Shown here: positions 17,636 to 45,871 of the stretch, piece after piece
Layout: the number at the start of each line of letters is the position of its first letter
How positions within the stretch are numbered: position 1 is the stretch's first letter
Assembly (NCBI GenBank): GCA_964462115.1
Contig: CAYWWA010000001.1
Span: 25,795 to 87,061, forward strand
Length of the DNA stretch: 61,267 nt
From: an uncultured Candidatus Saccharibacteria bacterium
GTDB taxonomy: Bacteria; Patescibacteriota; Minisyncoccia; Phycocordibacterales; CAIZIN01
Reading direction: 5' to 3'
Made by a program: the position numbers and the translations under genes
Notes under the pieces: model-generated
Told to the model about the DNA's origin: nothing
Seen by the model: only the letters and a program-made list of their open reading frames with translations
Databases searched by the model: none

Positions 17636-17718
17636 CACTAAATAATAACCTAAAATATAAGAAAAGACAAAATCCACATTTTTAGCTCCTAAAGTGGGTT
17701 TTGTTTTATAATGAGAAT

Positions 17719-22256: not shown

Positions 22257-22371
22257 ACTATAAAATATATAATTTTTCTTCCAAAACACCAAATATAATG
22301 TTTATACTTTTTACTTTTAAACTTGTAAAAATATCTTTTACTTTTTCTATAAAAAATGATATCATTGACCG

Positions 22372-26260: not shown

Positions 26261-26285
26261 GATCTATGATTTTTTCAAATTATTT

Positions 26286-26675
26286 TTAATTTTTTTTATT
26301 ATTCACTATTCCAGAAACAATATCAGCCACATCTTGAGGTGTAGTCAAAGCTTTAACTACGAAATCTGCAGCCCCTAATTCACGCACTCTTCTTTCATCA
26401 GCATGGTTGCTTAGATTAGTTAGAGCTATAATTGGTGCAGCCATGGCTAATTGTTCACTTTTTTTCTGTTCCAAAAAAGCAAAACCGTCTAATTCTGGCA
26501 TAATTAAATCAGTCAAAATGACATCGGGAGTAAAGCCAGTCCTTAAAATTTCTAAGGCCTGATTACCATCACCTTTTAAAGTTACCTCATAACCACACTG
26601 ATTTAGTTTGACTGAATACATGGCAGAAATCAGTTTATCGTCCTCTATTAACAATACTTTTATTTTATTTTCCAT
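26286..26675 (-). CDS. Stand-alone response-regulator receiver (CheY-like)
   Basis: 129 aa with VLLIEDD...DLIMPELDG...ALTN, a typical REC domain, and no output domain. Confidence 0.85.
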   Translation of the reverse strand: MENKIKVLLIEDDKLISAMYSVKLNQCGYEVTLKGDGNQALEILRTGFTPDVILTDLIMPELDGFAFLEQKKSEQLAMAAPIIALTNLSNHADERRVRELGAADFVVKALTTPQDVADIVSGIVNNKKN

Positions 26676-26688
26676 TATTTAAATTATA

Positions 26689-28389
26689 TTATAAGTTATC
26701 TACTTCTTCAACTGGAATCTCTTTCTTAAATACTTTTAAGATTGCGTCTTCCTTAACTGTTAACATTCCCTTAGCTCTAACACATTTATAAACTTCAGCT
26801 TCTACTGGGTTAGTTAATATAACTTGAGCTAAATCTCTATCCATCCTATACATTTCAGACACCACCATTCTACCTTTGACACCAGGCGAACCATCGGGAG
26901 CTGGAGTCAACTCTAAAATCTCATCTGACAGCTCAATCTTGGCTAATGCTTCTGGTGGTAAATCAGCAAAAGATTCATTAATAATTTTTCTTCGTGCTTC
27001 ATCAATTGGGACCACCTTACCTGCTCCAGGAGCATTTTTACGAACTAATCTTTGAGCCATCCCCATAATTAAAGTGGAAGGAATTAAATAGGGATCAACC
27101 CCCATATCAATCAAGCGTGGAATGATTCCGCTGGAAGTATTGGTGTGAATAGTAGATAAAACTAAGTGACCGGTAAGCGCAGCTTGAATAGCCAAACCAG
27201 CAGTCTCCTTATCACGAATTTCTCCCACCATAATAATATCTGGGTCTTGTCGCAAAGTAGTTCTTAGTCCATTAGCAAAATCATAACCAATCTCGGGCCG
27301 GACTTGAGACTGAGAGATTCCATCAATATTGTATTCTACCGGATCCTCTAATGTTAACACATTTTTGCCCTCTCGATCAACCTCATTCAACATAGCAAAA
27401 AGTGTAGTAGATTTACCACTACCAGTTGGACCAGAAATTAGAATCAGACCATAAGGCGCCTGTAAGGCCTCTTTGACTGTCGCTACGTTGTATTCACTCA
27501 TACCCAAATCTGATAACTTCCTCACCCCTTTTTCTTTATCCAAAATACGCATTACCACTTTTTCTCCATAAGTAGTAGGAAAAGTAGAAACACGAAAATC
27601 CACTCGACGAGAATCAATAATCTTAGTAAAACTACCGTCTTGTGGTTTACGTTTTTCGTCAATACGCATGTTACACTGAATCTTAATGTTTGCCACCACC
27701 GCATCATGCACCTTAGAAGGAAGTTCTAACAAAGTATGTAACTCACCATCAATTCGGTAACGAATCCGCACCTTGTCTAGCATGGCTTCAATGTGCACGT
27801 CAGACGCATTACCATCTACCGCATAACGAATAATCGTATTAACCATGGTAGGGACAGGAGCCTCCTCCACAATAGTGGTCTCCTGTTTTTCGTCTTTTTT
27901 AATAACCTGCAACTCTTCCTCATCTTTTTTTAATTCGTCTTCGTAGTCAGATAGGGCTCTACTTACTTCGTTGCTCAGGCCTTTATAAGCCGACATAATT
28001 TCTCCATAATTTTCTTCCGAAATCAAAAATAATTTAAACGGCATATTGATTCGAGTGGAGATAAAGTTCAAAGCATCACGTGACTCCATTGAATCTGGAT
28101 TTAAAATACCCACCTCTAAGAAACCATCTTGAATCCCAATAGGAACAATTTTATAAAACGCAGCTGATTGTTCAGGAATATACTTCAAGATATCATGCAC
28201 CACCTTGGGATCAACCTGACGTACTGGTAAATTAGAAAATTCTCCTTTAACCTCTAAAATATCATTTTCGGTAAAACCATAGTTCAATAAGGCCTGTTCA
28301 ATTGAGAACTTCTTAATGTCTTCATTAAACCTATCTACATCCTCTGGTTTAATTATTTGTTTGTTGATAATAAAATCGTAAAATTGCAT
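26689..28389 (-). CDS. pilB: Type IV pilus assembly ATPase PilB/GspE family
   Basis: 566 aa with Walker A GPTGSGKSTT, MVGEIRD and STIHTN. An N-terminal GSPII-like domain is present. Confidence 0.9.
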   Translation of the reverse strand: MQFYDFIINKQIIKPEDVDRFNEDIKKFSIEQALLNYGFTENDILEVKGEFSNLPVRQVDPKVVHDILKYIPEQSAAFYKIVPIGIQDGFLEVGILNPDSMESRDALNFISTRINMPFKLFLISEENYGEIMSAYKGLSNEVSRALSDYEDELKKDEEELQVIKKDEKQETTIVEEAPVPTMVNTIIRYAVDGNASDVHIEAMLDKVRIRYRIDGELHTLLELPSKVHDAVVANIKIQCNMRIDEKRKPQDGSFTKIIDSRRVDFRVSTFPTTYGEKVVMRILDKEKGVRKLSDLGMSEYNVATVKEALQAPYGLILISGPTGSGKSTTLFAMLNEVDREGKNVLTLEDPVEYNIDGISQSQVRPEIGYDFANGLRTTLRQDPDIIMVGEIRDKETAGLAIQAALTGHLVLSTIHTNTSSGIIPRLIDMGVDPYLIPSTLIMGMAQRLVRKNAPGAGKVVPIDEARRKIINESFADLPPEALAKIELSDEILELTPAPDGSPGVKGRMVVSEMYRMDRDLAQVILTNPVEAEVYKCVRAKGMLTVKEDAILKVFKKEIPVEEVDNL

Positions 28390-28395
28390 TTAAGA

Positions 28396-28767
28396 TCAAT
28401 TGTTAGGGGTCGAGGTGGAATTGGTTTCATTAATAATATTAAAACTATTTCTGGCGGAAGAACTATTGAGATAATTAGTATTAAGCGGTAAAAAAGGATT
28501 TTCATCACGAGGCACGATACTACCTAATTGAATCGGGTCGTTGTTTAGTTTATCAAATCTGTCTTTACTCTCGCCACTATCTATATAAGTATAAAGTAAT
28601 CGCCCAGTATCAGAAACCTTCTTGTCCAACGCTTGGAGATTTTTTAAATCGGCCACAGCATCATTGGTGGAAATTGTCACCTCCCTAGTCTGTTGGCTAA
28701 CAATGGTATCATTATAAAATAACCAACCGCAGAGCAGACAACCTAAAATTAATAAAATGTATCTCAT
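28396..28767 (-). CDS. Hypothetical membrane-anchored protein in the pilus block
   Basis: 123 aa with an N-terminal TM. It lies 6 nt upstream of pilB. No recognisable motif. Confidence 0.5.
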   Translation of the reverse strand: MRYILLILGCLLCGWLFYNDTIVSQQTREVTISTNDAVADLKNLQALDKKVSDTGRLLYTYIDSGESKDRFDKLNNDPIQLGSIVPRDENPFLPLNTNYLNSSSARNSFNIINETNSTSTPNN

Positions 28768-28772
28768 AAAAA

Positions 28773-29351
28773 TTATTTATTAAAGAAATAAGTACGTAAG
28801 GTAATATTGAAATTATAGCTATCTTGAGCCAGAGCTTTGTTGCTTTCTTGAGTTAATTTCAAACCCACAATATCTAATAAACGCAAATTATGTTCTAAAA
28901 CTTTCAAAAAGTTCAAAACATTTTGATAACGACCAATCAAACTAAATTCCAATTGATAATCCTTATATCCAACATCAATTGATGAACCACCAGCCGTAGT
29001 TGGAGCTGGAGTGCTAGTTTTGGTGTCATTAAGTTTAATGTTTTTCCAGTCAATACCTTGACCATATTTTCGGAGTAAACTAGATAGTTCCAACAGTAAT
29101 TGAACATTGTCCACCCCATCTGGTAGCGCAACTTGAATCTTATTTAAGAAAGAAGTATTTTTAACAGTTGATAATTGGCGATCAATTCTGGTTTCTAAAG
29201 TATTTTTATCTTGATAGCGAATTAAAACCTCATCGTAAAGCTTGGCTTCTTGTTGTAATTCACCCATTTTGATATATTCCTTATTGATACCATAGAAAAA
29301 AATCACCGCTGAGATACCTATCAATAATAATGGAGTTAAGAAAGATTTCAT
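28773..29351 (-). CDS. PilO-like pilus biogenesis protein (tentative)
   Basis: 192 aa with an N-terminal TM plus coiled coil, positioned in the pilus block. No diagnostic motif. Confidence 0.4.
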   Translation of the reverse strand: MKSFLTPLLLIGISAVIFFYGINKEYIKMGELQQEAKLYDEVLIRYQDKNTLETRIDRQLSTVKNTSFLNKIQVALPDGVDNVQLLLELSSLLRKYGQGIDWKNIKLNDTKTSTPAPTTAGGSSIDVGYKDYQLEFSLIGRYQNVLNFLKVLEHNLRLLDIVGLKLTQESNKALAQDSYNFNITLRTYFFNK

Positions 29352-29354
29352 AAA

Positions 29355-30161
29355 TTATATGGTTGAATTATCATTAGTGCTAGTAGTGGTTTCTGCTGGA
29401 GCAGGATCAGATTGGCCGTTGATGGTGACAGAAGAATCGCCGTCTGGATTAGCAACACTTGAATCATTATTATCTGTATTGACCACTGGCTCAACTGTTT
29501 GAGCTACATTACTATTATTAGAGGAAGTATTCAAAGTACTAACGGAAGAAAAATTAATCCCTAAATTATTAGGACTAATTTTATTAAACAATAATATCTC
29601 CGAACGGACATTAGCGTCTAAATTAAAACCAATAGTTTTATCTTGGTTATCGGTAAATTTGGAAAATACTGGGTTAATCAAAACGGTGTTGGAAGCATTA
29701 TAAAAATTTGATTGTTCAGCAATAGCGGCATAATCGGTTGCATATCCAGTAACAACTAAAGTGCTTGCATTATTATCAGCGTATTTATATTCTAAAGAAG
29801 TAAAGGCTATTTTTTTAGAAGTGCTTTGCTCTAAAAAAGTAAATAAAGGAGAGATAACCAAGTGCTTATTGAAGACGCTATTGAAAGCTTCAACTCGACG
29901 GACAATTTCTGCATTATCCTCATATACAAAACGACCCTGTCGGCTTTGAGCGTTGGCAATATCTATCTTCTTATTGTCTAAAACATTTTCTTGAGTATAA
30001 TTCATCCCCCAAATACCAAAATAGGCCACGACACTTATCAGAAAAATAATAATAGAGACCACTAACAAGAAGTCGGTGTGACTACCACTTTTCCCAGATG
30101 CAGAGGCATAAGAAATGACTGGTTTTTTCGGTATAAAAGATGTGTGGTTCTGAGGATTCAT
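29355..30161 (-). CDS. PilN-like pilus biogenesis protein (tentative)
   Basis: 268 aa with a short cytoplasmic N-terminus, a single TM, and an extracytoplasmic domain with an S/T/N-rich tail. Assignment rests on position only. Confidence 0.35.
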   Translation of the reverse strand: MNPQNHTSFIPKKPVISYASASGKSGSHTDFLLVVSIIIFLISVVAYFGIWGMNYTQENVLDNKKIDIANAQSRQGRFVYEDNAEIVRRVEAFNSVFNKHLVISPLFTFLEQSTSKKIAFTSLEYKYADNNASTLVVTGYATDYAAIAEQSNFYNASNTVLINPVFSKFTDNQDKTIGFNLDANVRSEILLFNKISPNNLGINFSSVSTLNTSSNNSNVAQTVEPVVNTDNNDSSVANPDGDSSVTINGQSDPAPAETTTSTNDNSTI

Positions 30162-33834: not shown

Positions 33835-36114
33835 ATGAATAAAGACCATAGCGCCCTTGCTGCGCAATCGTCTGCAGACAAAGCAGACCAAACTGGTGGT
33901 ATTCCAGCTAAACTTTTATCCCCCTACAACCCACAAGAGACCGAGGCTCGCATTTATAAAATGTGGGAAGAGAGTGGCTTATTTAATCCCGACAACACCC
34001 CTAACACTTCGGGTCAAAATTATTGTATGATTATGCCGCCACCCAATGCCACTGGAACTTTACATGTGGGACACGCTATGGGAATCTCCATCTCTGATGC
34101 TTTAATTCGTTATCATCGGATGCGAGGAGATAAAACTTTATGGTTACCTGGCACCGATCACGCCGCTATCGCAACTCAAAGTAAGGTGGAAAAAATTATC
34201 AAAAAAGAAGAAAATAAAACTCGCCACGATTTAGGACGAGCAGAATTATTAAAGAGAATCGGTGACTTTGTCAAAAATTCTCAGGATTCAATTATTGCTC
34301 AAACCAAAACTATGGGGGCTTCGTGTGATTGGTCACGCCTGGCTTTTACCCTGGACGAGGCACGAAATTTAGCAGTGCGCACTACTTTTAAAAAAATGTA
34401 TGACGATGGAATTATCTATCGCGGGCATCGTATTGTTAATTGGGATCCTAAAGGTCAAACCACAATTTCGGATGATGAAATTGTTTACGAGGAACGCAAA
34501 GCTAAATTTTACACCTTTAAATATTCAGCCGACTTCCCTATTGCTATTTCTACCACTCGTCCTGAAACTAAAGTTGGAGATACGGCGGTCGCGGTTAATC
34601 CAGATGATGAACGTTACAAAGAATTTGTAGGTAAGGAATATGATCTGGAGTTTTGTGGAGTAAAATTACATATAAAAATTATCGCTGATAAAGAAGTAGA
34701 TAAAGATTTTGGCACTGGCGCGCTTGGCGTGACCCCAGCTCATTCCATGATTGACTGGCAAATGGCCGAACGGCACAATTTACCAAAGGTTCAAGTAATC
34801 GATGAATATGCCAAAATGACTGTAGCGGGAAATTTGAATGGAAAAAAGGTAGCGGAAGCCCGAGAGAATATTGTGGAGTGGCTCCGCATGCAAAACTTGT
34901 TAATCAAAGAAGAAGAGATTTCGCAAAATGTTTCTACTGCTGAACGCACCGGTGGAATTATTGAGCCCTTACCTAAACTCCAGTGGTTTATTGATGTGAA
35001 TCGTAAATTTATTTTACCCCAATCAAAAATTGATGGCGTCCGTGATGGTGAAGAAGTTTCCTTAAAACAACTAATGTTGCAGGTGGTAGATAACGGTCAG
35101 ATTAAAATTGAACCAGACTATTCAGCCACAGTTTATAAAAATTGGATTAGTAATTTACAAGACTGGTGTATCTCACGACAGATTTGGTATGGACACCAAA
35201 TTCCAGTTTGGTATAAAGGTGATGAAATTTACTGTGGAGTTGAAGCGCCAGTCGGCACTGATTGGATACAAGATGAAGATACTTTAGACACTTGGTTTTC
35301 ATCGGGGCTATGGACTTTTTCTACTTTAGGTTGGCCCAAGGTAGAAGCAAAAGATTTAATAGATTTTCACCCAACAGATTTGATGGAAACCGGTCGGGAT
35401 CTAATTTTCTTTTGGGTAGCTCGCATGATTTTAATGACCACTTACTGCCTTGGTGATATCCCTTTCCAGCAAGTTTATATGCACGGCATGGTGCGCGATG
35501 GCAAGGGTAGAAAAATGAGCAAATCACTCGGTAACGGAATTGATCTAATTGATGTAGCGGAAAAATTTGGGGCTGACGCTGGACGTATGGCTTTAATGGT
35601 GGGAGCGACACCTGGCATTGATACTAATATTTCGGAAGATAAAATTAAAGGTTATAAACATTTTGCGAACAAGCTCTGGAACATTTCCCGCTTTGTCTTG
35701 GAAACAGTTAAAGATGAGAAATATGACCAAACTTTTTCCGACTGGACAGAGACTGACTTGAAATTAATCGCCGCACGAGACGAAGAAGTTAAAAAAATAA
35801 CCGAAGAATTAGATAATCTAAAAATCCATATCGCCAGTGACAGATTTTATCAATATACTTGGAAAATTTTTGCTGATCAAATTATTGAACAATCCAAAGA
35901 AATTTTGGGTGGTTATAAAACTGAAGCCAAAGGAACAACAGAAGAACAAAAATCTCGCAAACAATTTTTACTTCACACTCTCCGCACCATTTTAATTTGT
36001 TTGCATCCTTTCATTCCTTTCGTAACAGAAGAAATTTGGCAAAATATTCCTCAATTCAAAACAGCTGGACGAGATTTTTTGATGGTGGAAAAATGGTTAG
36101 CTGGAAAAAACTAA
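33835..36114 (+). CDS. valS: Valyl-tRNA synthetase (compact, without the long C-terminal coiled coil)
   Basis: PPPNATGTLHVGHA (HIGH) and KMSKSLGN (KMSKS) motifs with a CP1 editing insert. TGTTAATAT-N6-ATG lies upstream. Confidence 0.95.
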   Translation: MNKDHSALAAQSSADKADQTGGIPAKLLSPYNPQETEARIYKMWEESGLFNPDNTPNTSGQNYCMIMPPPNATGTLHVGHAMGISISDALIRYHRMRGDKTLWLPGTDHAAIATQSKVEKIIKKEENKTRHDLGRAELLKRIGDFVKNSQDSIIAQTKTMGASCDWSRLAFTLDEARNLAVRTTFKKMYDDGIIYRGHRIVNWDPKGQTTISDDEIVYEERKAKFYTFKYSADFPIAISTTRPETKVGDTAVAVNPDDERYKEFVGKEYDLEFCGVKLHIKIIADKEVDKDFGTGALGVTPAHSMIDWQMAERHNLPKVQVIDEYAKMTVAGNLNGKKVAEARENIVEWLRMQNLLIKEEEISQNVSTAERTGGIIEPLPKLQWFIDVNRKFILPQSKIDGVRDGEEVSLKQLMLQVVDNGQIKIEPDYSATVYKNWISNLQDWCISRQIWYGHQIPVWYKGDEIYCGVEAPVGTDWIQDEDTLDTWFSSGLWTFSTLGWPKVEAKDLIDFHPTDLMETGRDLIFFWVARMILMTTYCLGDIPFQQVYMHGMVRDGKGRKMSKSLGNGIDLIDVAEKFGADAGRMALMVGATPGIDTNISEDKIKGYKHFANKLWNISRFVLETVKDEKYDQTFSDWTETDLKLIAARDEEVKKITEELDNLKIHIASDRFYQYTWKIFADQIIEQSKEILGGYKTEAKGTTEEQKSRKQFLLHTLRTILICLHPFIPFVTEEIWQNIPQFKTAGRDFLMVEKWLAGKN

Positions 36115-36118
36115 CATA

Positions 36119-36658
36119 TTATTTAAGAGATACAAATTCCGCACACCTTAAGGTGTTATCTAATGAGTCTCCTAAGTAATAATCAATAACAGCTTGCTGA
36201 TTTGCAAAATCTGGTCGAAATACAAAGCTGAAATCATTAGCTATATAACCTGTTGTGTTGTTATATCTATTACTTAAAACCAACGTCTGATCACGACTTT
36301 CATTAAACGAAATATTAACGATACTACCATCTATTTCACCATCTAAAATATCTATCACACTATAATAAGTTTTAATTCTCGTGCCATCGATACAAAGATA
36401 AAAATGGTAACTGTTTTTGGTGTCAGTTTTATGTTTGCTTACCCAATCACGAAATTCGTTATATTCCTTATTAGATAAATTAGCAAATAAATAAGGTAAA
36501 GGATTAGGTATTTTATTTGTTGTTTCTTCAACAATCACAACCATTTCGGGCAGAATAACAACCGCTTCTTGATTTTTATTTTTTGAAGAAAAGATAAGAA
36601 TAATGATACTTAAAATAAGTAAAATTGTTATTAAAATAATAAGTATCTTTTTCATCAT
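36119..36658 (-). CDS. Hypothetical TM-anchored protein (last gene of the envelope operon)
   Basis: 179 aa with N-terminal TM KILIILITILLILSIIILIF. It lies 17 nt after the preceding gene. Confidence 0.55.
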   Translation of the reverse strand: MMKKILIILITILLILSIIILIFSSKNKNQEAVVILPEMVVIVEETTNKIPNPLPYLFANLSNKEYNEFRDWVSKHKTDTKNSYHFYLCIDGTRIKTYYSVIDILDGEIDGSIVNISFNESRDQTLVLSNRYNNTTGYIANDFSFVFRPDFANQQAVIDYYLGDSLDNTLRCAEFVSLK

Positions 36659-36675
36659 TTTTAAATTTTAAACTA

Positions 36676-37995
36676 TTACCATCTAAAATTATTACCACAA
36701 TACGGTGACCACCAATTCCCTGTTGTCAGATAACCATCTGAATATAGATCCCACGGTTTATCATCTATACATGCACCAAAAGTAGAATTATCGTATAAGC
36801 ACATAGCATTACCACACCCATAATTCAACTGTGCACGGGTGCAAGCCGCATAAAGATTATCTGTTGTAGTAATAGTCTCGGCAAGATATTGATATCTTTG
36901 GTTTTTTACAGGACTTTCTGGAACAGCAAAACTTCTTCCGATCAAACCAGTTATAGGGCTGTAAAAAGCAGTATTGCTGTATGGAACTATTCCCACACCC
37001 ACACGCCAATCACCCCATTGAGCAGGACGCCAATCGTCAAAGACATCTTTAAAATCAACTTCCACTAACATAGTTGGCCACCAACCACTTGGTCCATTAT
37101 AACTAACCGCATCAAAAACATTATTTAACATGACCTGACGAGAATTATCATTATATATACGTAAAAGTTTTACCATTGGAGTACTACGATTAAAAATTAA
37201 GTTATTAAGTGCCGCATAATCATTGCATAGTTCTTTATATTCTTCAAAAGAATTAATGGGGGAAGAAATCTTAAACCTAAATGTTGGTTCATATTGACCA
37301 AACTCACCACTGCTTTCACATCTGTCATCTACTATACTAATTTTAGATGAAAACGGACAAACTGGCACACAATAGTTCTGATTCCACTCCTCTCCGTTTA
37401 TATACCATTCTTCATTTTCAACTTTATAACTATTGCCACTATACAACCCACTACCATCTCTCATATCCCTAACAAGCAAAATAGAAATCGTCTTTGGATC
37501 GTCCTTAGCCACCAGAATTTGCCCTTCTGGACAATCTCTTTCGGAATTCAAAAATTCTCTAATTCTATCTGTTTCTACACAACTTCCACCATCACTATCG
37601 CAAAGTTTTTCAGCGCCAATATTGCCATCAACCTTCAGAGACAAAATATCATTTTTAGTGTTATCAAACAAAGCAAATTTTTCTTCATCCGTTTTGCTAT
37701 CTATCTTTCCAACATAAACCCTTTGCACGATATCATTTTTTTGCGCATCCGAAATAAACCCATCAACTAAAACTTTATTTAAAATCGCCACGTTACCCAC
37801 TTTAAGCGAAAAATAAGTATCTAAAGGAGTCAGATTGATTGTGCCTATTTTTTTCTGAGTAAGTAAAGAATTATTCAGTGGCACATGTCTTGTTCCATCA
37901 AGATCATAGCTATCTGCTAAGATATCGGTTGAATCAACAAACAAAACGACAACCGCTATCAATATTAAAGATATTCTAAAATAAGGGCTAGGCAT
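36676..37995 (-). CDS. Secreted Cys-rich hypothetical protein carrying the GNIGAEKLCDSDGGSC motif
   Basis: 439 aa with a signal/TM (ISLILIAVVVLFV) and many Cys and Trp residues in the C-terminal half. Its N-terminal module is paralogous to the 38001-38420 product. Confidence 0.65.
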   Translation of the reverse strand: MPSPYFRISLILIAVVVLFVDSTDILADSYDLDGTRHVPLNNSLLTQKKIGTINLTPLDTYFSLKVGNVAILNKVLVDGFISDAQKNDIVQRVYVGKIDSKTDEEKFALFDNTKNDILSLKVDGNIGAEKLCDSDGGSCVETDRIREFLNSERDCPEGQILVAKDDPKTISILLVRDMRDGSGLYSGNSYKVENEEWYINGEEWNQNYCVPVCPFSSKISIVDDRCESSGEFGQYEPTFRFKISSPINSFEEYKELCNDYAALNNLIFNRSTPMVKLLRIYNDNSRQVMLNNVFDAVSYNGPSGWWPTMLVEVDFKDVFDDWRPAQWGDWRVGVGIVPYSNTAFYSPITGLIGRSFAVPESPVKNQRYQYLAETITTTDNLYAACTRAQLNYGCGNAMCLYDNSTFGACIDDKPWDLYSDGYLTTGNWWSPYCGNNFRW

Positions 37996-38000
37996 AATAA

Positions 38001-38420
38001 TTATTTACAAGATTCTATGGCTTGATATATTTCTTGAGCGGAAAAACAATTTTTTCCCGAACTATCACAAAACTTCTCGGCTCCAATATTTCCGCCGATA
38101 CCAGCCTCATCTTTGACACCGACTCGCAAAGTCTCCGTATCGCCATTATTAGATTGAGGTAGGGTGTGATTAGGATAATTACCGATTATCAATGTGTCAG
38201 CTACTAGTTTATTAAAACTAGACAAACCATTTACGTTTAGATCAGAGCCAATGATCAAAGCGCCCTGTTTGGTTTGCGTGTCTCCGCTAATATTTATCGG
38301 TGGATAAATATTATTATCAGCCCAAACAAATTCCACGACCAAAATTGATAATAAACAAAGATTGATAAAGGAAGAAAAAATAAAGAAATTTTTCCAACTA
38401 GAATTAGATATATAACTCAT
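38001..38420 (-). CDS. Small secreted hypothetical protein carrying the GNIGAEKFCDSSGKNC motif
   Basis: About 139 aa with a signal/TM. A TATAAT-N7-ATG arrangement favours the start at MSYISNS (38420) over 38429. Confidence 0.6.
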   Translation of the reverse strand: MSYISNSSWKNFFIFSSFINLCLLSILVVEFVWADNNIYPPINISGDTQTKQGALIIGSDLNVNGLSSFNKLVADTLIIGNYPNHTLPQSNNGDTETLRVGVKDEAGIGGNIGAEKFCDSSGKNCFSAQEIYQAIESCK

Positions 38421-38470
38421 ATACACCATTATAATAATTTATTTGATCTCTGTCCAAAAAAATGGTATAA

Positions 38471-39511
38471 CTACACCCAATAAAATTCTGTAAACACTGT
38501 TTTGTAGTTAGCAATTACTCGCTCAGCTTGTTCATAAGTCAATTTATAATCCATACCATCATGCGCAATACGATTACGGACTTTATGTGCTTCCCAAGCT
38601 TGATCAAGTGACTGGAAATCGTTTTCATCCACATTCATCAATTTTTCCCCCACCGAGACACCAGCATAACCCATCGCGCTGAGCATATCATCTAAGAGCA
38701 CATCAGCAGCTACAATAGCTTGTCGCCAATCGTTCTCATTATAAGAACGCATCCATAATTGAATTTGAGTCCATTGTTCATTCTGCCTTGTCTTGTTAGC
38801 GTCAACCACAAACTCCTCCGCAGATAGTTCGGGTTTTAAATCGGCTTCGGTGATTGTCTTACTAACCGCAGTATTATCGTAAAGACTAACAAAATAATTT
38901 AGGGCAATTTTAGAATAAAGATAAATAATAGCGAACAATACGCATAAAATTATAGAAATTTGACGCCATGATTCCCAAAGACGAGTCCAAAAAGCTGCAA
39001 AGTTAGCCCAGACTAAATTAGTGCTCAAATTAGCTCCGTCTACCCAGCCACTAGGAATTTCAGTAAACTCTACATACCACCAGACCGTGCCATAGGCAGT
39101 GACTGGCCCCCTAGTTACCTTTCCTAAAGTATTTTTTGCTTGTTCGCCCAAGAGATTACCAGCCGGCTCTGACAAAACACGTAAACTATTTTTAGCTACT
39201 ACCTCTTGATTTAAAGTAAAACTATTAGTATTGACTCCAACATTATTTTGAGAGCTAAATGGCCACCAATCAAAACTCAGACCAGACTGCACGGAAGAAG
39301 TTACAGTGTTGTCATAATCATAATTATTTTGTCCCGACCACTCACTCAAAACAGAAACTCCTGAACCACTGTTTTCAGTATCAGGCGTAACCTCGCTTAG
39401 ATTATTGCTAGCCACCAGTCCCACCAACAAAGCTAAACCCAAAAAAACTGCCGCAATAGTATCGGAAGTATCCAGACCTGAATTTGATGATGAAGATGTT
39501 TTGTCTGCCAT
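38471..39511 (-). CDS. Two-TM membrane protein with an extracytoplasmic SH3b-like segment and a C-terminal HEPN-like (Rx4H) domain
   Basis: 346 aa with TMs near residues 19-36 and 186-205. GTVWWYVEFTEIPSGWVDGANL is SH3b-like. The C-terminal ...AIVAADVLLDDML...AWEAHKVRNRIAHDG contains RNRIAH at 38561-38578. Confidence 0.6.
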   Translation of the reverse strand: MADKTSSSSNSGLDTSDTIAAVFLGLALLVGLVASNNLSEVTPDTENSGSGVSVLSEWSGQNNYDYDNTVTSSVQSGLSFDWWPFSSQNNVGVNTNSFTLNQEVVAKNSLRVLSEPAGNLLGEQAKNTLGKVTRGPVTAYGTVWWYVEFTEIPSGWVDGANLSTNLVWANFAAFWTRLWESWRQISIILCVLFAIIYLYSKIALNYFVSLYDNTAVSKTITEADLKPELSAEEFVVDANKTRQNEQWTQIQLWMRSYNENDWRQAIVAADVLLDDMLSAMGYAGVSVGEKLMNVDENDFQSLDQAWEAHKVRNRIAHDGMDYKLTYEQAERVIANYKTVFTEFYWV

Positions 39512-39520
39512 AATTAAAAA

Positions 39521-40786
39521 TTAAATTGGTAAATTAGGTGGTGGTTCGCTATGCTTAGACATAATTTTACTAACTGCTGGCGCTAAAACTGAAGTAGATG
39601 GAAAGTGGTAAAGAGTAGCCAGCTCCTCTATATTCAATATGATAGTTTTCGAGTAGCTCCGTTTAGGAAAGAAAAAGAAGGCGCGTTTCTGAAATGATAA
39701 AAAGCTTTCACCGCGTCGCTCTTCCTCTCTTACCCCAGCAAAGTCTTCCCAAGGATACTTAAAGCTGGCTTTATCTTGAGGAAAAAAATAGTTCTTAGCT
39801 GAAGTATCATAAGGTTTAAGCAGCGCCATAGCAATTCCTTTGGCTGCTTTATTGGCCTTATCTTTATCCGCAAGATAGATTGTTCTCACTCCAACATCAA
39901 AAGCTATTTTAGAAATTTTCCGCTCGATTCCAGCAATCCTATCAGCCTGCCCTTTGGTGGCGACCATAATTTGATCTTTAGCATCAGGATCTTTTTTCTT
40001 ATCAGCTTTTTTGACCATTTCTTCCTTGATCTTAGCAATTTCTTTGACTGCTGCACTGGACCAATCATCTTTCTTTTTACCCCAAGTGCTGGGCGACAAC
40101 CAATTACGTTTACTCCAGTCTGGGTCACTTCCTTTGTGAGCACGAATCACAAACTGAATCCAAAATTGTTCACCAGGTTGAGTTTGGGACAAAAATTCCA
40201 ATAAGAAGTTTAATGGGTCAACTCTTAATTCGCTTTCCACCTTTTCATCTTGTAAATTGAAATCATTATAGGTCCTGATTGGATAAATAGATTCTGCGTT
40301 ATCACCACCTAAAGTATATTCTACGCAAAGTAACTTTTTATCTTTGGGATCATATTCCACTTTTTTAGTATAATCTTCCACTTTATTAACTATGGCCCCC
40401 GGATATTCGGCGTAAACCTGCTGCTCTATCAAGCGAGAAAATTCTTCACGAGTCCAAATGAAAAAATGAATTTGACCATCGATCGCCGCAATTTCCAAAG
40501 AAAACCAAGGTCTGGTTTTACCTTTGATGATTCTATCCCAAAAGGTTGCCTCGCCTCCGACCTGATTAAAAACTGATAATAAAACTTCCATCGCCAATGG
40601 CGTTTTGACAGATTCCTTTGGCACATTGATTTCCAATAGAACATATTTAAGGGAAAGAAAATATTGAGATCGACGATAATCAGTAAAAGCTGAAGTGGCC
40701 GATATAGCTAATACAAAAGGAGCAACTATCAAAAATAGAATTTTAAAATATGGCCACAATAATACCAAGAAATCACCCACTTCCAT
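39521..40786 (-). CDS. Membrane hypothetical protein (first gene of the envelope operon)
   Basis: 421 aa with an N-terminal pair of TM helices, LLEINVPKESVKTPLAMEVLLSVFNQ, a Lys-rich central region, and ...EELATLYHFPS near the end. TGTTATAAT-N7-ATG lies upstream. Confidence 0.6.
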   Translation of the reverse strand: MEVGDFLVLLWPYFKILFLIVAPFVLAISATSAFTDYRRSQYFLSLKYVLLEINVPKESVKTPLAMEVLLSVFNQVGGEATFWDRIIKGKTRPWFSLEIAAIDGQIHFFIWTREEFSRLIEQQVYAEYPGAIVNKVEDYTKKVEYDPKDKKLLCVEYTLGGDNAESIYPIRTYNDFNLQDEKVESELRVDPLNFLLEFLSQTQPGEQFWIQFVIRAHKGSDPDWSKRNWLSPSTWGKKKDDWSSAAVKEIAKIKEEMVKKADKKKDPDAKDQIMVATKGQADRIAGIERKISKIAFDVGVRTIYLADKDKANKAAKGIAMALLKPYDTSAKNYFFPQDKASFKYPWEDFAGVREEERRGESFLSFQKRAFFFFPKRSYSKTIILNIEELATLYHFPSTSVLAPAVSKIMSKHSEPPPNLPI

Positions 40787-40883
40787 ACTACTAATTATAA
40801 CACAGTTAGACTAAGTTACTAAATATTTTGGTAGTTTTTTAACCTATGTTATAATTAAATTGTTAATAATTAATTTTAAGAAA

Positions 40884-41330
40884 ATGAAAAAAACTTTAAT
40901 TTGGGTTTTGGTGATAGTGGTTTTAGCAGCTATTATCTATTTTGCTTATCCAGCATTTAATAAATCAAACAAGGATATTTTGTCTGGGACCTACTTACTT
41001 AACACGGTAAATGGAGTAGAGCTTGCTCCAGATTTATCCGCTTCCCTGACCTTTAGTCAAACTGAAGAAACCATAGAAGACGCCACTAAAGTGGTAAGTA
41101 GTCTATCAGCTAAAGTCTGCAACAACTTCAATAGTTCATATAATATTAACGATGATATTTTAATAGTTGGAGCGTTAGCTGGCAACAAAAAGTCTTGTCA
41201 AGAACCAGTCGGATTGGATGATTTAGAAAGCGAACTTCAAGTGCTATTGAGTTCTCAACCAAGCATTAAGGCAGATCAAAATACTATCACTCTAAGCTCG
41301 GGTGATAAGACTTTTGTCTTTAAAAAATAA
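40884..41330 (+). CDS. META-domain (HslJ-like) protein, second paralog
   Basis: N-terminal TM, then LSAKVCNNFNSSYNINDDIL...KKSCQEP..., a META-like pattern. The ORF track starts at TTG 40860; I prefer ATG 40884. Confidence 0.6.
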   Translation: MKKTLIWVLVIVVLAAIIYFAYPAFNKSNKDILSGTYLLNTVNGVELAPDLSASLTFSQTEETIEDATKVVSSLSAKVCNNFNSSYNINDDILIVGALAGNKKSCQEPVGLDDLESELQVLLSSQPSIKADQNTITLSSGDKTFVFKK

Positions 41331-41388: not shown

Positions 41389-42300
41389 TTATAAATTCTT
41401 CAGATTTTTTTGTAATATTTCCGCTAAAACTTTAGGCAAATCAGCTGCTGACTTAGCAAGAACCGCTCCCCCAGTTTCTTCAGGGGTTTTACCTTCTGGC
41501 AGCGCGGTCGGATTGACTTTATAGGTTTCAAGAGCTGAGGCGCCATCTTGGGTAATACCAACACCGATAACTACAATTCCCTGTTGTCTGATATTAGAAA
41601 CAATATTTTGCATATCGCCAATATAGTCCGCTTCGCCGTCTGTCATCACGATGATAATTTTCTTTAATTCACCAGTTTTAATTTTTTCTATAGTTTCGTG
41701 AGTAAACGAGTTATTCATTTTTTGCAATAAATTATTGTCGCCATTGGAAGAGTCTCGGCTGGTTTGAATAATTTTAGTAGCAGATTTAATACGGTCGGTT
41801 TCAGAAAAATCTTCGCTCATTGATTTTAATAAAGTGTCGCTACTATTACCAAAGAAGCGAAGAACTTCTGAACGAAAAGTCAATAGTTTATCCATATTTA
41901 TTTTTTCTTCTTCGGCAACATCAGCGAAGCGTTTGAGAGTTTCCATGAATAGGACAGCGGCTTTGAGTTGTTCCTGTGATTTCTCTCCTTCCATACTACC
42001 CGAGCCATCACAAACCAAAGAAATTTCCACTTCGCCAAATTGGTCAGCTTTTTTTTCCTTAATTTCAACGCTTTCCCAAACTTTAGGTTTAAAATTACCC
42101 GCCATCCCGCTCACTACTACCTGTGTCGGATCAACTAAATAATCACCTTCTTCTTCAGGATATTTCGGAGCAAACTTTTTAGCGGTGCGTTTGGAAATAA
42201 TTCGGCGGAGTAAATTCTCCATTTCATCAACCAAAAATTCATTAGTTTCAGGATTCTTAAGCTGATTTAATTGTTCAGCCAATTGACGATAATTTTGCAA
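41389..42300 (-). CDS. vWA-domain protein segment; the frame is open upstream to 42474 and is probably the C-terminal part of a frameshifted HExxH-vWA protein
   Basis: MIDAS motif LVCDGSGSM with a Rossmann-like IIIVMTDGEA. There is no ATG in the open frame upstream of the track's TTG. This is the -1 frame relative to ORF 42393-43478. Confidence 0.75.
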   Translation of the reverse strand: MQNYRQLAEQLNQLKNPETNEFLVDEMENLLRRIISKRTAKKFAPKYPEEEGDYLVDPTQVVVSGMAGNFKPKVWESVEIKEKKADQFGEVEISLVCDGSGSMEGEKSQEQLKAAVLFMETLKRFADVAEEEKINMDKLLTFRSEVLRFFGNSSDTLLKSMSEDFSETDRIKSATKIIQTSRDSSNGDNNLLQKMNNSFTHETIEKIKTGELKKIIIVMTDGEADYIGDMQNIVSNIRQQGIVVIGVGITQDGASALETYKVNPTALPEGKTPEETGGAVLAKSAADLPKVLAEILQKNLKNL

Positions 42301-42392
42301 TTCTCGTTTCTGAACTCCGAGTTTGTCGGCATATTGTTGGTCGGGGTCTTGCTGCTTAGCTGCCTCATCTTTAATAATTTTTTTGGCTTGGT

Positions 42393-43478
42393 CTAAGATG
42401 CTTTTTTCTTGTTCAGCTGTGATGGGTTTAGGAAATTTTTTGTCAAAAGCATCATAATCAGATTTAAATAATCGTTAGGATCTATCTCACCCAAGCCATC
42501 GGATGGGCCTTGGGTTGACTTAGGCTCACCTGACGATTTGTCTGATGAACTATTTTGATTTTGATCATCTTGACCCTGGCTTAGTTGCGACTTATCTTGT
42601 TCACCTGGTTGGTTTTCTGGCGGTTGATTATTTTGATCTCCATGATCGTCACCACTTTGTCCACTTGCATTTTCTGGTGGATTTTTTCTATCTTCAATAT
42701 CCTGTTCTTTTAATTTTTCCATTTCTGGCACGACAAATTTATCTTGCAATTTCCAACGCATTTCCATCGGCAAAGCTGTGCTGGTCGTTAGCTTAAATAA
42801 ATTTTTACCAGTCTTGGTTTTGGCCGACAAAACTCTATCCACCGCTTCGCGCACCTCAGGAGCCACCGTGCATTTTTTGTCAGGAAATTGTCCTTCAACT
42901 AAAAGAGTTTGAGAGAATTGAATGTGTCTCGGAGACTGAGTAAAGTCTAAACTTTGAAATAAATCTTTATCGTAGGTAGTGCGGCGCACAGTCTCAAAAC
43001 CCTGATGGATCTTTTCAGTGACAGCGTCATTTTGGCGATTATCAGACACACAATTATCAAGCGTGGCAAAAGCCCGATCTTTTTTCAGTCGTCCAAGATA
43101 TGTTTCGAAGTTAGCAATACCTTCTGGGGTTTTGAGAATATCCATCATTTCTTCTAAATGCCCAACTTCGTGGGCTACCGCGAAAACTGTCGCCTGCTCC
43201 CGTTCTTCTTTGGATAGTTTGCTTTCGGCATTTTGATAAAATCTTTCGCTAACACCGACTACACCCTTTTCTAAATCAACATAAAATGTGTCTTTTTTGG
43301 ATGGTTCAACTGTTATTTGGCTACCAGCCATCTGCTCAAAAACCGCACGATTTCTTTCAAAAAACTCCATCGTGGTCTGTTCAGCTTCAGCAGTCTTTAA
43401 TTTGGGTAGAATTTCCGGCTCATTTTTAGGACTAACTTTAGCTGAAGTTTTAATGGCTGGTTTTTCAAAGTTATTCAT
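42393..43478 (-). CDS. HExxH metallopeptidase-like protein (the 0-frame product, or the N-terminal part of the fusion)
   Basis: 361 aa with FAVAHEVGHLEEM (HExxH) and an acidic/Q-rich low-complexity region before the frameshift window. Confidence 0.7.
   Translation of the reverse strand: MNNFEKPAIKTSAKVSPKNEPEILPKLKTAEAEQTTMEFFERNRAVFEQMAGSQITVEPSKKDTFYVDLEKGVVGVSERFYQNAESKLSKEEREQATVFAVAHEVGHLEEMMDILKTPEGIANFETYLGRLKKDRAFATLDNCVSDNRQNDAVTEKIHQGFETVRRTTYDKDLFQSLDFTQSPRHIQFSQTLLVEGQFPDKKCTVAPEVREAVDRVLSAKTKTGKNLFKLTTSTALPMEMRWKLQDKFVVPEMEKLKEQDIEDRKNPPENASGQSGDDHGDQNNQPPENQPGEQDKSQLSQGQDDQNQNSSSDKSSGEPKSTQGPSDGLGEIDPNDYLNLIMMLLTKNFLNPSQLNKKKAS
42397..42468 (-). promoter_or_regulatory. Candidate -1 programmed ribosomal frameshift signal: slippery T_TTA_AAT, 8-nt spacer, 9-bp stem
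   Basis: Heptamer at 42462-42468 in register X_XXY_YYZ with the 0 frame. The stem arms are gatgctttt (42445-42453) and aaaagcatc (42397-42405). The 0-frame stop at 42393-42395 follows directly. Confidence 0.5.
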
Positions 43479-43597
43479 AATTTATTTGACTTTATTTTTA
43501 AAATTTTATTTTTCATAAACTTATTGTATAAGCACCCAACCACAAGCTCCGCATAATACCAAGTGTCCAAAGATCAAAGAAACTAAGATTTAAAGTT

Positions 43598-45871
43598 CTA
43601 ATTACGGACGGCAAGCCAAAACCCACCACCACTCCAGCCATCCGCCCCATAATCCAAGCCCAGCTTCCGCCCATCACCACCCCAATTCCAGTAACCAACC
43701 CAACGCGAAGAGCCAACCGACAACACCGAAGCGGGGTCAGCGCAAGGCCAAAACCATTTGTTTTTAGTGATTGAGTTTCCGTCTTTGTCAGTATAACTGT
43801 AATCACGGTGAGATAGGTTTTGAGCGGTTTCTTGGTCTTGGATGAAGGACAGGAGTTCAGCTAAGTTAGCTGGTCGGTAGCCTTGGTATTTCATAGCTGC
43901 TTCAGCTTGGTCTCGGGTGTCATATTGGTCGGTGCCGAATTTGTCAAAGTTGTATTTAGAGAAATCTTTCTCAATACTTTGTGGTAGGATTTGAGCGATA
44001 TTGTTCATAATATCTTCGTCAAGGTAATCTTGGGGATTGACGGCGTTAATTAGGGATTGGAATTGGTCGGGGGTGGAGATGATGGCAAAAAGTTCAGGGT
44101 TGGGCGGGTTGGTTTCAGCGGTGTCAGGAGTGTTTAGATCACCCAACTCTCCCGCCGCTTCAGCCGACACTGCTTGTTGACGTAATTGAAAAGGATCCAG
44201 ATTAGCCAAATCTTGAAGATTGAAATGTTCTAGCGCTTGGGATTTTTTAATATTTTCTGCTTGAAGTTGAGGTGTTTGAAAACCTGAGATGGTGTGAGGG
44301 TCTAAGCCTAAGCTAGACTCTGAGACAGCTTGGATCAAGCCTCTTTTGACTAAGACTTTAGCCGCTAAAGCGCGGTCAGCTTTGGTGTATTCTTTGAAAG
44401 TTAAGGAGGTGACTAGTTGTTTGTCTAAGAATTCCACAAAGGAAGACTGGTCAGTGTGAGTACGGTGACGCCAGAGGGTGATGATGTTGGCTAGAGTGCG
44501 TTGGTTCCAGACTAGTTTTTGGAGAGTGTCAATTTTTCCATTGACTTCCTGAGCTTGATAATCTTTGGCTTTGTCTGGACTAATGGTGCCTTGATAAAAC
44601 TCTTGAACGTCAGCGAAGGCTTTACATAATTGAGGCAGGGTGACGGCGAGATCATAGCGGGAGAATTCCAGGTTGCCTTGTTCGTCCATTAGGCGAATGA
44701 GAGCGGTATCGTAGGTTTCGTCTTGGGGGGAATAGTTGATTTCTAAGTTGTTTTGATCAAACTCGTTGGCCATTTCAGGGGGTAGATCTTGCCGTTCGGT
44801 GTTTTTGGCCGATTTAAGGTTGGCGGTGAAGATGAATTGGAAACCGGGAGCGATGGGAGTTTTGCCGTCACCCACAATATTGACTTCATCACCAGGTTTA
44901 GCGTTAAGCAAACCCTTAATCATCACCATCTGCTCTTTAGGTAAGGCGGTGAATTCGTCAAAGACGACAACCCTACCTTCCTTCATGGCAGTGGCTAATG
45001 GACCGTTTTTGAAGATGGTCTGCTGGGCGGAGATGACTCGTTTGGTCACGGTCTTAGTTTGACCAGTTAGGTCAGTGTCGGTAAAGCTGCGCTCTTCGTA
45101 AACTGGTTCAATACCCATGGCGCCCCAGATGTTGCTCTCTCGAGTCTGAGGATTGCAGTAGATGACTTCAGCTTCTTGACCAGTGAAGTGTTTAGCGGCA
45201 AATTTAGCTAAGGAGGTTTTCCCCGTGCCAGTGGCGCCATGGAGAAACATTGGTAAGCCGGAGATCAGGCGTTGACCAATTTCAGTTAGGTTGCGTTGAG
45301 TGGTGGGCATCATGGCGATGTGACCAGAGGCGTAGAGATCAGCTTTGTAGCTGGCTAACTCGGCGGCGCGAGTCAAGATGGGATGTTCAATTTGAGCGGT
45401 GGTTAATTGAGCTTGAAGTTGATCCAGTTGTTGATGATATTGCTCTAAGATCAACTTTTTAACTCTGGATTTGGGAGCTTTGGCTAAAGCTAGTTGACGG
45501 GCAAAGACCTCAGCGGTGAGCTTAGCTTGTTGAGTCAGAGTGGCGCGGAGCTTGAGATAGTCGGGTCCTAAGGTTTGCGCTAGGTAGTCTTCATCAATGG
45601 GCTGGTCAAATTTGTCTCGATCAGCGCGAACTTGCTCTTTGGCTTTGGTGATACTGCCGTAGTCGGCTACTTGGATCTGACGGTGTTTAGCGATGATTTC
45701 AGTTAGAGCTTGATGCAAAGCGGCTTTTTGGCTGGCTGAGATGGGGGAATGGTCTAACTCGCTTAGTTCTTGCTTGGCTTCATTTTTTTCTAAGTGGAGT
45801 TGGTGGAGGTTGGAGTCGGAAGTGGAAGCTTTAGCTATTTTAGCTTTAGTTCCTTGAGGAGAATGGTTCAT
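43598..45871 (-). CDS. AAA+ ATPase of the MoxR/AAA_5 type, with an N-terminal coiled-coil region and a novel C-terminal module
   Basis: 757 aa with Walker A HGATGTGKTS (residues 211-220), Walker B VVVFDEF, and FIFTANLK. The C-terminal ~125 aa are homologous to ORF 12259-12750. TGATATAAT-N6-ATG lies upstream. Confidence 0.8.
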   Translation of the reverse strand: MNHSPQGTKAKIAKASTSDSNLHQLHLEKNEAKQELSELDHSPISASQKAALHQALTEIIAKHRQIQVADYGSITKAKEQVRADRDKFDQPIDEDYLAQTLGPDYLKLRATLTQQAKLTAEVFARQLALAKAPKSRVKKLILEQYHQQLDQLQAQLTTAQIEHPILTRAAELASYKADLYASGHIAMMPTTQRNLTEIGQRLISGLPMFLHGATGTGKTSLAKFAAKHFTGQEAEVIYCNPQTRESNIWGAMGIEPVYEERSFTDTDLTGQTKTVTKRVISAQQTIFKNGPLATAMKEGRVVVFDEFTALPKEQMVMIKGLLNAKPGDEVNIVGDGKTPIAPGFQFIFTANLKSAKNTERQDLPPEMANEFDQNNLEINYSPQDETYDTALIRLMDEQGNLEFSRYDLAVTLPQLCKAFADVQEFYQGTISPDKAKDYQAQEVNGKIDTLQKLVWNQRTLANIITLWRHRTHTDQSSFVEFLDKQLVTSLTFKEYTKADRALAAKVLVKRGLIQAVSESSLGLDPHTISGFQTPQLQAENIKKSQALEHFNLQDLANLDPFQLRQQAVSAEAAGELGDLNTPDTAETNPPNPELFAIISTPDQFQSLINAVNPQDYLDEDIMNNIAQILPQSIEKDFSKYNFDKFGTDQYDTRDQAEAAMKYQGYRPANLAELLSFIQDQETAQNLSHRDYSYTDKDGNSITKNKWFWPCADPASVLSVGSSRWVGYWNWGGDGRKLGLDYGADGWSGGGFWLAVRN

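Follow-up and report, generated by a model that had tools for sequence, protein, structure and literature searches.

A five-gene envelope block in a Patescibacteria genome is probably a lineage-specific juxtaposition of two units

HEPN RNases are common defence effectors. Components of type IV secretion systems (T4SSs), homologues of their coupling proteins included, are widespread in Patescibacteria and have possibly been exapted there, and TrsD of pGO1, a protein resembling the N-terminal part of VirB4, is abundant in the same bacteria (PMC12102498). Here we examine a block of five minus-strand open reading frames (ORFs), named p1 to p5 in the order of transcription, in a 61,267-nt stretch of a Patescibacteria chromosome (contig CAYWWA010000001.1). 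This whole stretch is called the window, and positions are numbered within it. An earlier note on this DNA had proposed that the five genes form one dedicated surface apparatus or a defence module. After comparison with about 160 related genome pieces, we consider it probable that the block is a lineage-specific juxtaposition of unit A (p1-p2) and unit B (p3-p5, a variable surface adhesin cassette), which would be joined only in this lineage of Paceibacteria-type Patescibacteria.

The evidence for two units comes chiefly from the locations of the homologous genes in other genomes. p1 can be aligned over its full length with hundreds of proteins tagged PF26449 (DUF8128), at identities of 35-58%, and the precomputed tag is present on p1 and on almost all of its 120 best relatives. 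The earlier note had been unable to name a family for any of the five proteins. Scans of all five against Pfam, NCBIfam and PADLOC gave nothing usable, but p1 is a member of Pfam DUF8128, whose model is presumably absent from the Pfam copy used, as our Pfam-A scan of p1 returned no family. The roughly 800 relatives of p1 (374-493 aa) all come from Paceibacterota, Minisyncoccia, Kaiserbacteria and similar groups, and DUF8128 is encoded in at least 593 GTDB species. When the neighbours of DUF8128 genes were counted in 80 GTDB-species loci and five additional contigs (L001-L005), the next gene downstream was yceG (mltG) in 77/85 and the next gene upstream encoded a sigma70_r4/HARE-HTH protein in 68/84, with leuS at -2 or -3 in 65 loci and mnmA at +2 or +3 in 53. 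The closest p1 relative after that of L001 (P0004, 46% identity) resides in this canonical context. No relative of p2-p5 was found within 10 kb on either side of DUF8128 in any of the 80 GTDB-species loci, and among L001-L005 such relatives occur in L001 alone. The canonical partners were also sought in the window, where no sigma/HARE-HTH, YceG, gatCA, ligA or DedA gene was found; the leftmost 226 nt of the window do not contain the start of a leuS gene. The array (ychF)-leuS-sigma70_r4/HARE-HTH-DUF8128-yceG(mltG)-mnmA is highly conserved in Paceibacteria (L002-L085, for example L002:6417-13323).

The p2 family, which comprises at least 234 proteins, has a different address. It was confirmed in at least 571 metagenome loci and is near-universal. 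Among 80 metagenomic loci, all 42 that extend at least 2.5 kb upstream carry gatA just upstream on the same strand, and three contigs show the longer series of pilin genes, ligA, gatC and gatA ahead of the p2-family gene. Relatives of p1, p3, p4, p5 or YceG were found near the p2 family in none of the 80. Given the constant gatA gene and the absence of DUF8128 nearby, p2 is likewise a core gene, and its usual location is unrelated to that of DUF8128. Homologues of p1 and p2 are thus scattered and not syntenic with the remainder of the block, which is the outcome that the earlier note had itself named as refuting its proposal of a single five-gene apparatus.

The earlier note had also likened p1 to the N-terminal membrane module of TraD/VirD4-type ATPases without the ATPase, and this comparison proved sound. 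Hydropathy places the transmembrane (TM) segment of p1 at residues 16-34. An AlphaFold2 model (mean predicted local distance difference test score, pLDDT, 79.5; predicted template modelling score 0.78) has a single long helix at the N-terminus, alpha/beta domains and a disordered tail; this C-terminal tail (...SKHSEPPPNLPI) is conserved yet predicted to be disordered. An alignment of 27 DUF8128 sequences contains 42 invariant columns, including EELAT-x-YH-x-P and the terminal ..AP-x-NLP. The search of p1 by tblastn reached the start of genes annotated as 'DUF87 domain-containing' on Bacillus plasmids. The homologue on plasmid pBM69 of B. methanolicus (WP_003349917.1) has 833 aa; DUF87 covers residues 332-580, and TrwB_AAD_bind matches weakly. 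Directly downstream of its gene come a Replic_Relax gene, genes for conjugal transfer and one for a separate VirB4-like ATPase (AAA_10), a neighbourhood that marks the position of a coupling protein. Aligned by hhalign with this protein, the DUF8128 profile gave a probability of 98.5% (E 1.5e-15), with p1 residues 37-412 on target residues 3-306, and reverse tblastn with residues 1-320 of the pBM69 protein recovered the DUF8128 genes of 73 loci. Residues 90-322 of p1 also match positions 74-304 of the 824-position profile phrog_5156 (E 1e-8), and a Foldseek search of viral models returned Bacillus phage proteins of 551-913 aa, including some of 825-913 aa (E ~1e-15); in phage genomes, tblastn with p1 found nothing. 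A fused form was seen in an IMG/VR contig-end fragment (L093:21-536), in which the DUF8128 C-terminal motif in its Patescibacteria-type form, '...EELATIYHFP...APAPAQIP...', runs straight into the T4CP-type P-loop sequence 'YIIGKTGTGKS...FMDPHGD'. The L093 reading frame breaks after the P-loop and the remainder is high-GC, phage-like sequence, so this contig is perhaps a chimeric assembly.

The motor itself is missing from the family. p1 has no Walker A motif, and the DUF8128 proteins examined (87/87) have 385-552 aa, which is too short to include an ATPase. No ATPase-fused or distant DUF8128 paralogue was present among all the related DNA collected, and neither the window nor 1.5 Mb of sequence flanking DUF8128 yielded a VirB4 or a type IV coupling protein (T4CP) ATPase. 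These comparisons identify p1 as the motor-less N-terminal module of a coupling-protein-like ATPase. Three other assignments were tried and rejected. p1 as a VirB4 protein gave hhalign probabilities of 0.1% against the AAA_10 VirB4-like protein of pBM69 and 0.3% against TrsE of pGO1; p1 as TrsD gave 0.3% against pGO1 TrsD (a single-sequence template, and hence of limited sensitivity), and no virB4 gene lies near DUF8128; for a VirD4-like assignment, DUF8128 did not match pGO1 TrsK in hhalign. In the PDB the top Foldseek matches of the p1 model were solely TrwK/VirB4 chains of the R388 T4SS (probability 0.97-1.0, E 1e-4 to 2e-3), and a sequence-profile search of the PDB with the DUF8128 alignment produced chance matches only. 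Our literature search on DUF8128 found no paper describing a relationship to coupling proteins. In the conserved array of Paceibacteria, a motor-less coupling-protein relic keeps a fixed place, with a sigma-like DNA-binding protein on one side and a cell-wall lytic transglycosylase on the other.

p2 is the second core family, occurring in forms of ~340 aa and in many forms of ~200 aa. Common to all are a TM helix and a very highly conserved C-terminal domain of ~100 aa with the invariant motif AWEAHKVRNxxAH. In the AlphaFold2 model of p2 the first TM helix spans residues 15-35, a long TM helix 166-212 (the second hydropathy segment lies at ~185-203) and the helical domain 231-342. Arg312 and His317, which form an R-x4-H motif, are invariant in 34/34 sequences, and the best profile matches of the helical domain are six families of the HEPN clan, all below threshold: HEPN_Swt1, RiboL-PSP, Hypoth_Ymh, pEK499_p136, DUF4145 and Cthe2314. 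HEPN_Swt1 matches 17/26 family members, at best with E 8e-4, which is below the Pfam threshold. The invariant motif and these top matches make 'HEPN-like' the best reading of the domain, in agreement with the HEPN-like tail that had been noticed at the outset. Searches of the PDB with profiles of the p2 alignment and of its C-terminal part gave chance matches only, and since neither a PDB sequence match nor a structural HEPN match was obtained, the HEPN fold of p2 is putative. Foldseek matches the beta-domain (residues ~100-160) to SH3 domains and to bacterial SH3b domains of cell-wall hydrolases (probability 0.9-1.0), and the Pfam models SH3_3 and GW reach E ~1e-6 in some homologues. From the charge distribution and the Lys-rich N-termini of homologues we infer that the SH3b domain faces the outside of the cell and the HEPN-like domain the cytoplasm. 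A literature search on HEPN proteins together with Patescibacteria returned nothing specific.

The remaining three genes form a trio that also occurs without p1 and p2. The paralogy of p3 and p4 and their shared Cys motif, both of which had been proposed earlier, are borne out: over the first ~120 mature residues of p4, identity to p3 is 27% (E 3e-6). The two proteins have in common the motif G-N-I-G-A-E-K-[FL]-C-D-S-x-G-x-x-C, which is kept in the L001 counterparts, and a post-signal PP[IV]NxS..Q-K-G-L box. When 1.84e9 representatives were searched exhaustively with a profile, 105 proteins of up to 6,785 aa were found, many of which carry the Cys-loop unit in up to 12 copies and many of which have the N-terminal box. 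Peptidase_S74, an intramolecular chaperone known from tail fibres and endosialidases, stands at the C-terminal end of 3/7 giant Cys-loop proteins scanned. The repeat itself matched no Pfam model in seven bearer proteins or in p3 or p4, and a literature search on it yielded nothing specific. The C-terminal Cys-rich domain of p4 (~280 aa) is without a detectable homologue, and a search of 5.8e9 proteins at E<=1e-3 returned p4 alone. p5 has a homologue in L001 (29% identity, E 2e-20), and in two further contigs, L090 and L091, its position is taken by proteins built in the same way (signal anchor, ..[FY]LC.D.., near-C-terminal Cys). The trio measures 152-763-159 aa in L090 and 326-131-368-181 aa in L091, with no DUF8128 or p2 gene nearby. 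Its middle gene is variable: in L001 and L090 it encodes Glug repeats with the module at the C-terminal end, and in the window the module at the N-terminal end with a unique Cys-rich domain. A Cys stands 1-3 residues from the end of every p3-like protein (..ESCK, ..LQCGN, ..AECN and ..LTCD; window 38001-38012, L001:15600-15974, L090:8001-8459, L091:8995-9390). This residue gives the mature p3-like protein an odd number of Cys, and an intermolecular disulfide may form.

The physical layout that had suggested a single operon is as first described (Table 1). All five ORFs are present on the minus strand with gaps of 9 nt (p1-p2), 41 nt (p2-p3), 5 nt (p3-p4) and 17 nt (p4-p5), each begins with a hydrophobic TM or signal segment (19-residue Kyte-Doolittle means 2.1-3.6), the TGTTATAAT-N7-ATG arrangement precedes p1, and the block converges on valS. 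The latter gene, on the plus strand at 33835-36114, encodes valyl-tRNA synthetase (ValRS; PDB 1gax, E 1.3e-149), and 4 nt separate its stop codon from that of p5. This ValRS is short (759 aa versus 862 aa in T. thermophilus) and its alignment stops at T. thermophilus residue 705, so that the C-terminal coiled-coil is seemingly absent. Within the block, the gap between p2 and p3 contains TGGACA-17-TATAAT, an 11/12 match that is the top-scoring promoter-like site of the whole region and has the same geometry as the site at p1; the p3 homologue of L001 likewise has its own TGgTATAAT-N6-ATG. Other genes of the window are arranged in the same manner. Elsewhere in the window, neighbouring genes on the same strand are separated by at most 41 nt in 45% of cases, and a TATAAT-like box lies 6-9 nt 5' of the ATG at 15/48 window genes, often with an upstream TG. 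Examples are gyrA (7980-10472), gyrB, murD (23425-24843) and an AAA_5 gene (43598-45871). A box at this distance from so many starts indicates that leaderless mRNAs are common in the genome, and because both short gaps and TATAAT-N6-9-ATG are frequent genome-wide, neither feature is special to the p1-p5 block.

Table 1. Features of the five-gene block, with positions in the 61,267-nt window
Feature	Position	Strand	Characteristics
p1, membrane-anchored DUF8128 protein, 421 aa	39521..40786	-	PF26449 tag; N-terminal TM and cytoplasmic domain; no ATPase
p2, ditopic membrane protein, 346 aa	38471..39511	-	AlphaFold2 and hydropathy: TM1, disordered linker, SH3b-like ectodomain, TM2, HEPN-like domain
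p2 SH3b-like extracellular beta-domain (predicted), residues ~100-160	39032..39214	-	pLDDT ~97, Foldseek
p2 cytoplasmic HEPN-like helical domain (predicted), residues ~231-346	38474..38821	-	AWEAHKVRNxxAH; pLDDT 96-98
p3, small secreted protein, 142 aa (139 aa if translation starts at Met4)	38001..38429	-	Signal peptide, PPINxS..Q-K-G-L box, GNIGAEKFCDSSGKNC loop, C-terminal unpaired Cys
p4, secreted protein, 439 aa	36676..37995	-	N-terminal module p3-like; C-terminal ~280 aa Cys-rich; 12 Cys
p4 N-terminal module, residues 33-158	37522-37899	-	Paralogous to p3; also in L001, L090 and L091 proteins
p5, small signal-anchored protein, 179 aa	36119..36658	-	Two conserved Cys; hydropathy mean 3.64; third trio member
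Extended -10 promoter-like box TGTTATAAT	40794..40801	-	Read in sequence; 7 nt 5' of p1 ATG, leaderless-type geometry
Internal promoter-like site TGGACA-17-TATAAT	38428..38456	-	p2-p3 gap; -10 box 7 nt 5' of p3 Met4 (38420)

The gene structure, homologies, domain architecture, genomic contexts and promoter-like sites are observed, and every biochemical role and the transcript structure are our inference. The two-unit reading can be drawn as follows. Unit A would be transcribed from the leaderless-type promoter at 40794-40801. The cytoplasmic domain of p1 would derive from the N-terminal, non-ATPase part of a coupling-protein-like ATPase of the monoderm type and the DUF87/TrwB class, and with the motor lost or never present, p1 would most probably serve as a scaffold or docking protein in the membrane. 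Its disordered but strictly conserved '..AP-x-NLP' tail, putatively the former linker to the ATPase, may bind a partner. p2, with its constant TM helix and cytoplasmic HEPN-like domain bearing R-x4-H, may be a membrane-tethered RNA-binding protein or RNase, and the extra TM helix and SH3b-like ectodomain of its subfamily could connect it with the cell wall or with a signal arising from the wall. Unit B would be a secreted, surface-associated cassette expressed from its own promoter at 38428-38456. Here p3 and p4 would contribute the signal peptide, N-terminal box and small disulfide loop, p4 a rapidly diverging Cys-rich distal domain, and p5 a membrane-anchored partner; together they may build a fibre or adhesin on the cell surface whose tip varies and which p5 helps to anchor or mature. 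The surface or adhesion role that the earlier note had given to the whole block is plausible for p3-p5.

Several observations weigh against this reading of the block as two units. A single ENA sample is the source of L001, L090 and L091, the contigs with relatives of the trio, which makes the evidence from the trio phylogenetically narrow. Promoter-like matches in the region number 23, compared with 20.1 in shuffled sequence, and so are not in excess. No terminator-like site was found between p2 and p3 or elsewhere inside the block, and read-through co-transcription from p2 into p3 is accordingly possible. L001 keeps the order p1-p2...p3-p4-p5 at 58% p1 identity despite different flanks, which is some evidence for linkage of units A and B. 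With respect to p2, its HEPN assignment consists of sub-threshold profile matches and a motif, and no HEPN structure is present among the top 50 Foldseek matches of the full-length model, a list dominated by SH3.

These observations bear directly on the alternative that the block is one dedicated envelope apparatus for host contact, with p1-p2 as a membrane base or sensor and p3-p5 as a co-transcribed external fibre. Consistent with such an apparatus, the genes are co-directional with gaps of 9-41 nt and no internal terminator-like site, all five products are membrane or secreted proteins, and the order survives in L001 between different flanks. The gene order of L001 is sigma/HARE-HTH, p1a, p2a, p1b, p2b, DedA, p3, p4, p5, rpsB, so that both a DedA/VTT gene between p2 and p3 and a duplication interrupt the block. 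L001 retains half of the canonical DUF8128 context, namely the sigma gene upstream, and shows that the block is divisible. Among relatives the five-gene order was found in L001 alone, and in 0/80 DUF8128 species and 0/80 p2-family loci. p1 and p2 belong to other conserved contexts (yceG in 77/85 and gatA in 42/42, respectively), neither lies near p3-p5 in 160 other loci, the trio occurs alone and has its own promoter-like site in both the window and L001, and gaps of this size are the norm for the genome. We therefore consider a single apparatus unlikely.

The duplication in L001 (L001:10001-14722) is a tandem one of the p1-p2 pair, p1a-p2a-p1b-p2b. Orthology between the two loci is crossed: window p1 is nearest to p1a (58%), and window p2 is nearest to p2b (49-50%, versus 44% for p2a). 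This pattern suggests either loss of an inner p2a-p1b segment in the lineage of the window or insertion in that of L001.

A more speculative alternative, which we regard as distinctly improbable, takes p1 and p2 as a miniature trans-envelope signalling pair in this lineage, in which the DUF8128 relic would scaffold or gate an Ire1-like HEPN RNase activated by dimerization. The sensor-TM-HEPN layout of Ire1/RNase L is analogous to the ectodomain-TM-HEPN-like order of p2, although p2 lacks the kinase domain of Ire1. In such a pair the SH3b ectodomain of p2 would report contact with the wall or with a host, possibly contact made via a p3-p5 fibre, and the tandem duplication in L001 would reflect co-evolving sensor and scaffold modules.

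We consider very improbable a membrane-sensing anti-phage or conflict system, in which the HEPN domain of p2 would be an abortive-infection RNase triggered via the ectodomain and p1 would be accessory. The HEPN-like domain with its invariant R-x4-H and the nearby MoxR-vWA cassette speak for such a system. For p1-p5, however, PADLOC-DB yielded 0 families at E<=1, and the cassette's proximity, to which the earlier note had drawn attention, is not conserved in L001. The near-universal p2 family, fixed after gatCA, and DUF8128, present in its housekeeping array in hundreds of species, are core genes rather than members of variable defence islands. Least credible is a decayed integrated conjugative element or T4SS remnant with p1 as a truncated coupling-protein pseudogene: p1 is indeed homologous to a T4CP-like N-terminal domain and Patescibacteria have many T4CP homologues that are perhaps exapted (PMC12102498), but the truncation point is the same in 87/87 family members, which together with the 42 invariant columns and wide distribution speaks for purifying selection rather than decay, and the genes sit in a housekeeping context with no VirB4, T4CP ATPase or relaxase in the window or the 1.5 Mb of flanks.

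The remainder of the window is an ordinary Patescibacteria chromosome, with ychF, PBP2, gyrBA, a proS-like gene, murD, a type IV pilus ATPase cluster, secA and RNase R. The minus-strand cassette at 41389-45871 encodes a MoxR-like AAA_5 ATPase of 757 aa, a 361-aa protein with a weak match to Zn peptidases and a 303-aa vWA protein. META/HslJ-like lipoprotein-type genes at 17701-18168 and 40860-41330 each stand alone on the plus strand between minus-strand arrays, and L091 also has a META gene near its trio. The type IV pilus cluster (24914-30161) comprises genes for a 448-aa PilT-like ATPase, a 129-aa response regulator and PilB (566 aa), along with four small ORFs that match no Pfam model and probably code for pilins or assembly factors. 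In other genomes, ligA-gatCA-p2 is preceded by pilin genes. A 1,325-aa protein with bacterial surface Ig-like domains, encoded at 18315-22292, is a candidate large surface protein.

The five-gene 'module' is not in itself a new system. What the analysis offers instead are first functional handles on families that are near-universal in a huge group of uncultivated bacteria. DUF8128 proves to be the N-terminal domain, without its motor, of a conjugative coupling-protein-like ATPase, fixed beside MltG/YceG and a sigma-like HARE-HTH protein, a concrete example that fits and extends the published suggestion that T4SS parts have been exapted (PMC12102498). Members of the p2 family would be HEPN-like proteins tethered to the membrane, with the behaviour of core genes and not of toxins, and the C-D-x-x-G-x-x-C repeat marks giant fibre-like surface proteins. 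These are advances at the level of annotation, of use for understanding envelope building and host contact in episymbiotic ultrasmall bacteria.

Among known systems, the tail-fibre-like giant surface proteins with Peptidase_S74 have 2-12 copies of a '...LDVxGx[IV]GAxxYCDxxGxNC' unit and many have the PP[IV]NxS..Q-K-G-L box, whereas p3 and p4 carry one copy of the unit each and no Peptidase_S74, and the distal domain of p4 is unique. The fold of p2 residues ~100-160 is that of the SH3b cell-wall-binding domains of NlpC/P60 proteins (2evr, 2hbw), an autolysin (5jqc), an endolysin (4krt) and LytB (4q2w), but in p2 it is without an attached hydrolase and is placed between the two TM helices of a HEPN-like protein. 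As in the HEPN superfamily (Swt1-like, RiboL-PSP, DUF4145), the C-terminal domain of p2 is small and all-helical with an invariant R-x4-H; unlike HEPN toxins and defence genes, the p2 family is a core gene after gatCA.

For p1, the best PDB fold matches are the N-terminal domains of VirB4/TrwK (7o42, 7o43, 8rtb, 8rtd), but the template modelling scores are low (0.32-0.39, with root-mean-square deviations of 8-10 A) and there is no profile similarity to the VirB4-type proteins of pBM69 and pGO1 or to TrsD. In the DUF87/TrwB-class ATPases (WP_003349917.1, phrog_5156 and Gp156 of Bacillus phage G), the first ~300 residues are homologous to the whole soluble part of p1, and the fused forms have a conserved 'EELA..I...P' segment immediately before the P-loop. 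p1 ends exactly where the ATPase starts and, with no Walker A motif and no relaxase or T4SS genes nearby, cannot serve as a motor or coupling protein. With DUF8128 p1 shares the full-length alignment, the EELAT-x-YH-x-P motif and the ..AP-x-NLP C-terminus. It differs in context: nearly all members lie between a sigma70_r4/HARE-HTH gene and yceG, whereas p1 lies between an opposite-strand META-domain gene and p2.

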